The notes under the pieces: model-generated
Database searches by the model: none
What the model was told of the DNA's origin: nothing
What the model saw: only the letters and a program-made list of their open reading frames with translations
Assembly (NCBI GenBank): GCA_963780985.1
Contig: CAWAEF010000031.1
Coordinates: 17,286-81,285, forward strand
Direction: 5' to 3'
DNA: 64,000 nucleotides
Source: an uncultured Alphaproteobacteria bacterium
Lineage (GTDB): Bacteria > Pseudomonadota > Alphaproteobacteria > JAGOMX01
Translations under genes and position numbers: made by a program
Shown here: positions 42,213-42,587 of the stretch, piece by piece
Numbering within the stretch: the first letter of the stretch is position 1
Layout of the letters: each line of letters opens with the position of its first letter

Positions 42213-42587
42213 GGCTCTTATGCAAAACGGCTGGGTTGAATGTAATCTTCTGCCCCCAGCAGACGTCATCCTGAACGGACGACCGCGAAGCGGGAGGTAG
42301 TGAAGGATCCAGTTGTAGATGTGTCGCGTAGCGACTCTGCTTATAAATATATCAAACAAGTAAGTGAGACATCCAGTCGTCTAGATGATGACAAATAAGA
42401 TGATTGGGGCCATGTAAGGCAGAAGGCAGAGTCGCTTCGCGACGCATGTCTCACTGGATCCTTCGCTCCCGCCCGCTTCGCGGTCGTCCGTGCAGGATGA
42501 CGGGGGACGGGCGTATTCACTTTGCTAACTATCCTCACTTGAGTTCAACTTAGCATGCCGATTACTCACCTGTTTTACATAATAGCC
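42213..42587. mobile_element. full-length TIR-bounded non-autonomous element carrying a nested long-stem module
   Basis: TIRs are ggctcttatgcaaaacgg ... cctgttttacataatagcc. Flanking 8-mers are gtaaaatc / gtaaagtc. The inner family B module is at 42265-42501. There is no transposase-sized ORF. Confidence 0.8.

Follow-up and report, generated by a model that had tools for sequence, protein, structure and literature searches.

The results of our analysis indicated that the feature at positions 42213-42587 belonged to a family of MITEs that was probably mobilized in trans by a DDE transposase, inserted through an 8-bp staggered cut, and carried an unstable palindromic core; we place the probability of this whole explanation at about 0.8. 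Five copies or remnants of the family were found in the 64-kb stretch of DNA that was analyzed (the window), and all of them were intergenic; the copies with two ends were 155 to 375 bp long. The basic unit was about 370 bp long and consisted of imperfect terminal inverted repeats (TIRs) of about 25 nt (end consensus, GGCTCTTATGCAAAACGGGTGGGTTGGATG), an internal palindrome of about 235 bp, which we refer to as B, and a right-hand spacer of about 60 nt. The first-pass annotation of this DNA had also proposed a MITE, and this reading was supported by the TIRs, the 8-bp duplication, the absence of coding capacity, and the many dispersed intergenic copies.

The 64-kb window was searched for element ends with the 18-nt motif GGCTCTTATGCAAAACGG, with up to three mismatches allowed. 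Eight matches were found, compared to 0.08 expected from shuffled sequences, and all of the matches were on the expected strands (2988, 26292, 42213, and 53517 on the plus strand and 3142, 42587, 53883, and 55951 on the minus strand). Within each copy, the first 24 nt of the two ends agreed at 18 to 20 positions. The 42213-42587 copy (plus strand, 375 bp) is a full copy of the long form. Its left TIR, GGCTCTTATGCAAAACGGCTGGGTTG (42213-42238, plus strand), matched the right end at 19 of 24 positions, and the reverse complement of its right TIR (42562-42587, minus strand) was GGCTATTATGTAAAACAGGTGAGTAA. The copy was bracketed by the target duplication gtaaaatc (42205-42212) and gtaaagtc (42588-42595), had no internal ORF of more than 65 aa, and contained a B core at 42264-42502 (plus strand), in which two arms of about 80 nt flanked an AT-rich loop of about 75 nt. 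The left TIR began 4 nt past the stop codon of the ORF at 41303-42208, and the TAA stop itself fell within the left target duplication. A bidirectional intrinsic terminator was located downstream of the copy at 42606-42636; the copy is located between the stop codon and this terminator, so it is probably transcribed.

A second full copy of the long form (53517-53883, plus strand, 367 bp) was 86.6% identical to the 42213 copy. It began 8 bp past the hflX stop codon, contained a B core at 53568-53799, and was flanked by aaataact (53509-53516) and aaataacc (53884-53891). The short copy at 2988-3142 (plus strand, 155 bp) was flanked by tttaaatt (2980-2987) and cttaaatt (3143-3150), and its B core was reduced to one 20-nt mini-hairpin at 3040-3059. 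The remaining two members were a partial copy at 26292-26390 (plus strand), which consisted of the left end and a B core minus 169 bp, without a right end, and a right-end remnant at 55890-55951 (plus strand) that terminated in ...TTGCATAAAAGCC. Most of what the first-pass annotation had said about these sequences held up: the three copies shared TIRs as described, their AT-rich flanking 8-mers matched at 7 of 8 positions in each case, the truncated copy and the right-end remnant were both real as judged by the end-motif matches, and the claim that no copy contained a transposase-sized ORF was upheld, with a maximum of 82 aa in the long copies. All seven window copies, namely, the MITE copies at 2988, 26292, 42213, 53517, and 55951 and the two solo B palindromes described below (15750 and 30313), were in the plus orientation. 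DDE transposition does not predict such uniformity; a bias linked to strand or replication, or selective removal of the opposite orientation, might account for it.

Further copies were identified in JGI metagenome Ga0182030, which was scanned with a motif common to all four left ends. Eleven contigs carried the element, and they provided about a dozen additional copies. Contig L085 of this metagenome was 98.6 to 98.9% identical to window positions 18821-30332 over 11.5 kb and was therefore considered to be from the same species. The 2988 copy was also present in another same-species assembly (contig L114).

The window copies and the copies on same-species metagenome contigs yielded 10 copies with two ends, and the flanking 8-mers of these copies matched at 8, 8, 7, 7, 7, 7, 7, 6, 6, and 3 of 8 positions. 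Hence, seven of the 10 copies had flanks that matched at 7 or more positions, and the two perfect duplications were AATAAAAA (contig L086) and CTATAAAT (contig L099). In contrast, when left flanks were paired with the right flanks of other copies, none of the 90 mismatched pairs reached 7 of 8, and the maximum was 6 of 8. The matching flanks that had been reported for three copies were thus confirmed in the larger set. When matches were summed, 61 of 80 positions matched at offset 0, compared to 34 of 80 or fewer at any shifted offset, and per-position matching dropped to background exactly beyond 8 bp. The flanking 8-mers were 80% A+T, and most of the duplications contained one or two mismatches. 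We concluded that the flanking 8-mers are a genuine 8-bp duplication from staggered cleavage, a finding that argues strongly against a REP-like or RNA-gene origin of the outer element.

The first-pass annotation had not recognized the TIRs as those of a described family. This view had to be revised because the GGCTCTT tip, together with an 8-bp duplication, is an ISL3 signature, and the ends also resembled those of IS6100. Published ISL3 repeats begin with GGCTCTTCG(C) and are associated with 8-bp duplications (PMC6305408, PMC5337628, PMC11448079). For example, ISArsp7 has GGCTCTTCGCGGTTGGTGGTGAAT ends with the 8-bp repeat CCTTTGCC (PMC6305408), the ends of IS1096 begin with GGCTCTTCGCACTTGACGG (PMC5337628), and an ISL3 element of Microcystis aeruginosa and its MITE have GGCTCTTCG ends and 8-nt repeats (PMC11448079). 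Streptococcal ISL3 copies in phage records (IRL, GGCTCTATAATTTCTGTAGTGGGTAAATCC; IRR, GGCTCTTTGTCAACTGTAGTGGGTAGATG) had an exact AT-rich 8-bp duplication, CAAATAAA, and their ends matched the MITE ends at 22 to 24 of 30 positions, including the GGCTCTT tip and a GTGGGT.GAT box. The tip was identical in ISArsp7, IS1096, the Microcystis ISL3 element, and the streptococcal ISL3 elements, but it was not universal in ISL3, as ISPpu12-type ends read GGGTAT.CGGA. Two other comparisons were discarded: ISPpu12-like ISL3 copies were uninformative about the tip because they had the other end type or passenger genes, and a Salinibacter plasmid with a TIR-like sequence, AGCTCTTAAACAAAACG, proved to be a dead end.

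The present MITE was similar to ISL3 elements and their MITEs in its GGCTCTT tip, AT-rich 8-bp duplication, repeats of about 25 nt, and simple insertions, as well as in the inner GTGGGT.GAT/GGTGG box. It differed at repeat positions 8 to 18, which were ATGCAAAACGG in the present MITE versus CGC... or TGTCAACTGTA in ISL3, and the 235-bp internal palindrome was a feature of the present MITE. We favor an ISL3-type parent, with a chance that is about even.

It is possible, albeit doubtful, that the element is of the same kind but that its parent and its mobilizing enzyme were members of the IS6/IS26 family. The first 14 nt of the MITE, GGCTCTTATGCAAA, matched the IS6100 repeat, GGCTCTGTTGCAAA (PMC10470526), at 12 of 14 positions; the positions of the IS6 GG tip and "caaa" motif were matched as well, with TGCAAA at positions 9 to 14. 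The IS26 left end, in which the repeat is followed by a GGTGGTGAT box, matched the MITE ends at 20 to 21 of 30 positions. IS6 elements also make 8-bp duplications, the length found at the MITE flanks, and two IS6-derived MITEs of a similar size (227 and 336 bp) are recorded in a review of the family (PMC7986276). However, the TGT within cTGTt is fully conserved in the IS6 family (PMC7986276), whereas the MITE consensus across about 25 ends was CTTAT, in which TTA replaces TGT; CTTGT was found only in the 26292/L085 copy. In addition, IS6 elements move via cointegrates and often lack a duplication of their own, as did an IS26 copy that we inspected, whereas nine of the 10 MITE copies were simple insertions with a duplication. 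The MITE TIRs of about 25 nt were also longer than the 14 to 20 nt typical of IS6. Although ISL3 and IS6 are not separable by end sequence alone, the TTA in place of TGT, the longer repeats, and the simple insertions with a duplication therefore favored ISL3 over IS6. The data supported the placement of these sequences in a MITE family that is new but is kin to ISL3 or IS6 in its ends and 8-bp duplications.

No ISL3 transposase was detected in the window and about 95 kb of same-species contigs when the ISPpu12 transposase was used as a tblastn query with E values of up to 10, and the IS26 transposase yielded nothing relevant in the same DNA; these negative results count against the favored reading as well as against an IS6 parent. 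Similarly, none of the 40 window ORFs that were scanned against Pfam or NCBIfam was a transposase. The first-pass annotation had proposed that an autonomous element and empty sites should be sought. No autonomous element with the same ends turned up in about 160 kb of DNA from the same species or in GTDB representatives, plasmids, or viral contigs. Specifically, a scan of GTDB representative contigs with TGGGTTNNATGTAATCTTC listed 30 single matches in unrelated taxa, which was approximately the number expected by chance; therefore, the species was absent from the GTDB representatives. Plasmids yielded no match to the element or to a 50-nt end consensus in blastn searches, even at an E value of 10, and viral contigs scanned with GGCTCTTATGYAAAAC yielded 26 chance matches. 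An inverted pair of ends in viral contig L136 was rejected because it was located within ordinary coding genes.

Empty sites and insertion polymorphism were not found either: three sites were open to comparison with other same-species assemblies, and each of them was occupied. The intergenic DNA downstream of hflX in contigs L032 to L036 (87 to 88% HflX identity) was too diverged to align with that of the window, and about 50 kb of DNA from these contigs contained no MITE ends or B copies and only one hairpin of the C family described below. The contigs recovered in look-ups with neighboring proteins were all from the same strain or species, and they carried the element or ended inside it. The divergence of the copies (74 to 91% identity) was substantial, so the family looked old, as well as lineage restricted, and it is probably inactive.

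Based on these findings, we propose that a DDE transposase supplied in trans would bind both ends of the element and insert it at AT-rich sites, and that an 8-bp staggered cut followed by repair would generate the 8-bp duplication. An ISL3-family enzyme with a copy-out/paste-in reaction would be the favored candidate, and an IS6-family enzyme would be the main alternative. The core might then lose most of its length by slippage between short direct repeats located at the hairpin base, which would yield short forms of 155 to 185 bp, and recombination through the palindrome might give rise to symmetric variants with no target duplication. The family would now be fossil-like, with diverged copies and imperfect duplications. 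The identity of the transposase, the chemistry of transposition, and the present inactivity are parts of this scheme that we infer. If the scheme is correct, the MITE is the trace of an ISL3- or IS6-type transposase that was once active in this lineage but is no longer visible in it; beyond its unstable core and the question of its parent, it would be an ordinary MITE.

A repeat survey and alignments indicated that the long form was equivalent to the short form plus the palindrome B. The additional sequence of about 220 bp in the long form had been overlooked in the first-pass annotation as part of a second repeat family, as B was also found alone at 15750-15981 (plus strand), where there were no MITE ends, and at 30313-30544 (plus strand), where there were no GGCTCTT ends; neither solo B had a target duplication. 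When folded as single-stranded DNA, the long copy at 42213 had a predicted energy of -103.5 kcal/mol (z = -13.8), compared to -25.3 kcal/mol (z = -3.3) for the short copy. The position of B was identical in every long copy, and its orientation was identical in the nine standard long copies.

Three different junctions were observed in the short forms, and each was located at a microhomology. In the 2988 copy, the leftover of B was 20 nt and the junction microhomology was GTC[A/G]TCC; in the short copy on contig L075, the leftover was a 45-nt left arm and the microhomology was AGGAT; and in the copies on contig L086 and at window position 26292, 8 nt of the left arm and 46 nt of the right arm were left and the junction was ATCC. 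Such microhomologies were available because each B arm consists of small hairpins. The orthologue of the 26292 copy in L085 retained the complete palindrome, including the 169 bp missing from the window copy, which indicated that the window deletion was recent and was an independent recurrence of the one in L086. Judged by their junctions, the short forms are best taken as independent microhomology deletion derivatives of the long form. The varied leftovers of B and the strain-polymorphic deletion thus suggested that the form of about 370 bp was the one that transposed and that the short form was derived from it. Accordingly, two of the three copies that had been listed as intact, the long ones, retained that status, but the 2988 copy did not, as its junction identified it as a deletion derivative rather than an intact type.

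The 26292 deletion was demonstrated by alignment of both flanks, and a second strain-polymorphic deletion was probable. In this second case, contig L085 (11960-11992) had only one 20-nt mini-hairpin at the site where the window had the full B at 30313, and a 9-bp direct repeat, ACGGACGAC, was located on either side of the window B. We attribute this difference to the same deletion process with less certainty, as L085 diverges and ends 70 nt farther on and an assembly problem is possible.

These observations bear on an alternative that we regard as improbable, namely, that the short form was the original MITE and that B was a separate mobile hairpin that later inserted repeatedly into the 20-nt mini-hairpin. 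The occurrence of B alone at two window sites, the better conservation of its arms relative to the surrounding parts of the MITE, the situation at 30313 with its mini-hairpin-only contig and bracketing ACGGACGAC repeat, and the tips and inner module that B has in common with the C family would fit such insertions. However, what was left of B differed from copy to copy (20 nt, 45 nt of the left arm, or 46 nt of the right arm), which is expected only of deletion products. Moreover, the mini-hairpin at a "filled" site was present as an inverted duplicate instead of being split or directly duplicated, and no simple insertion gives that arrangement. The fixed position of B in the long copies and its fixed orientation in nine of them, as well as the deletion caught at 26292 versus L085, also spoke for loss of B from a long ancestor.

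An inverted loop was found only in two symmetric variants (contig L094, 2013-2338; contig L107, about 1246-1566), in which left-end sequence was located on both sides of B. These variants had no target duplication and were probably generated by recombination through the palindrome between copies, an origin that would imply chromosomal inversions. The palindromic core was a live source of structural variation, as it accounted for rearranged copies and for deletions that differed between strains of about 98.7% identity. Short-read assemblies also break at this core.

In pairwise comparisons of nine long copies, the identity was 84% in the left end, 91% and 89% in the two B arms, 78% in the loop, and 74% in the right spacer. 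The higher conservation of the B arms is not predicted by simple neutral decay. Possible causes are constraint on a master lineage, a function in the host, or gene conversion among copies of B, which are present in larger numbers. RNA-type covariation did not account for it, as the predicted pairs in the arms were conserved but not covarying, with compensatory change in 4 of 81 pairs and a covariation term of about 0.

The C family, a third repeat family that had also been overlooked in the first-pass annotation, consisted of hairpins of about 140 bp in which mini-hairpins with GNRA-like loops were nested; no target duplication was evident. Six were found in the window (5328-5490, 19059-19212, 32742-32924, 41027-41184, 55654-55789, and 57309-57490), and another followed hflX on contig L032 (7482-7608), which is from a relative whose HflX was 87% identical. 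The presence of C in this relative indicated that C predates the MITE and has a wider distribution. B and C had common GTCATCC/GGATGAC tips and a common inner module, GGATCCAG..ATG.GTCGCG.AGCGACTCTG. One speculative idea, to which we attach a low probability, is that B and C are lineage-specific, REPIN-like hairpins that propagate themselves or are maintained by the host and that one of them was captured by the MITE. If so, the arms would be subject to selection or templated copying, rather than the transposon ends, which would account for the arm conservation, the strain-variable presence, and the single orientation.

In form, and as a comparison drawn from general knowledge, B and C are extragenic hairpins like the REPIN/REP, Rickettsia palindromic, and Neisseria Correia elements. 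REP singlets are remnants of REPINs, and single mini-hairpins likewise occur as remnants of B. Nevertheless, REP units are much shorter than the B arms of about 80 nt, a RAYT was not seen in the window, and the outer MITE had DDE-type ends and an 8-bp duplication. It is therefore very unlikely that the whole element is a REP/REPIN-like palindrome moved by a RAYT single-strand transposase, or a structural repeat maintained by the host, instead of a derivative of a DDE element. The very strong hairpin, the conserved arms, the intergenic location of all copies, and the common orientation of five MITE copies and two solo B palindromes would be in keeping with such an origin. Against it, the duplication flanked the outer ends, these ends resembled those of DDE insertion sequences, and the scan of window ORFs against Pfam or NCBIfam revealed no Y1/HUH protein; to our knowledge, REP/REPIN elements move without duplicating their target. 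Finally, the location of copies directly past stop codons, and of the 42213 copy in front of a terminator, might suggest structured noncoding RNA genes or cis-regulatory 3' untranslated region elements, but this reading is hardly credible given that Rfam at gathering thresholds returned only a tRNA, that only the neighboring terminator gave matches in a permissive scan and these were weak, that compensatory changes were so few, and that RNA genes lack target duplications.

The MITE, B, and C copies were found among housekeeping genes, an ATP/ADP translocase gene, and genes for LRR proteins, and the density of small repeats was unusually high (about 13 in 64 kb). The nearest named relatives of HflX were from uncultured Alphaproteobacteria/Holosporales MAGs, with about 62 to 64% identity. 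The host is an uncultured alphaproteobacterium of the intracellular type. The TLC ATP/ADP translocase (11930-13474) points to an intracellular, energy-parasitic lifestyle.

Some of the genes in the window appeared to be broken. Aconitate hydratase (AcnA) was encoded by two overlapping ORFs on the minus strand (42646-43311 and 43308-45374), which corresponded to a 221-aa C-terminal piece and a 688-aa N-terminal piece; the frameshift points to a pseudogene or else to an error in the sequence. An MFS transporter at 22579-23917 (minus strand) was divided into several short ORFs, with an MFS_1 match only at 23219-23917. This gene may also be a pseudogene, of the sort that a reduced genome of the endosymbiont type is expected to contain. 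A T4-type large terminase gene (57596-58888) was located amid housekeeping genes and may be a remnant of a prophage or gene transfer agent.

Tandem repeats were also observed at several locations. Runs of a 7-bp AGAATCC/AGATTCT repeat were located on either side of a C element (18807-18911 and 19365-19420), and 48-bp repeats (20446-20829) were located in a C-terminal extension of ribosomal protein S2. Repeats of about 101 bp (52967-53281) were found in a 119-aa, secreted-looking ORF that adjoins a MITE copy, and 24-bp repeats (56225-56455) were found in a Gly/Ala-rich ORF.
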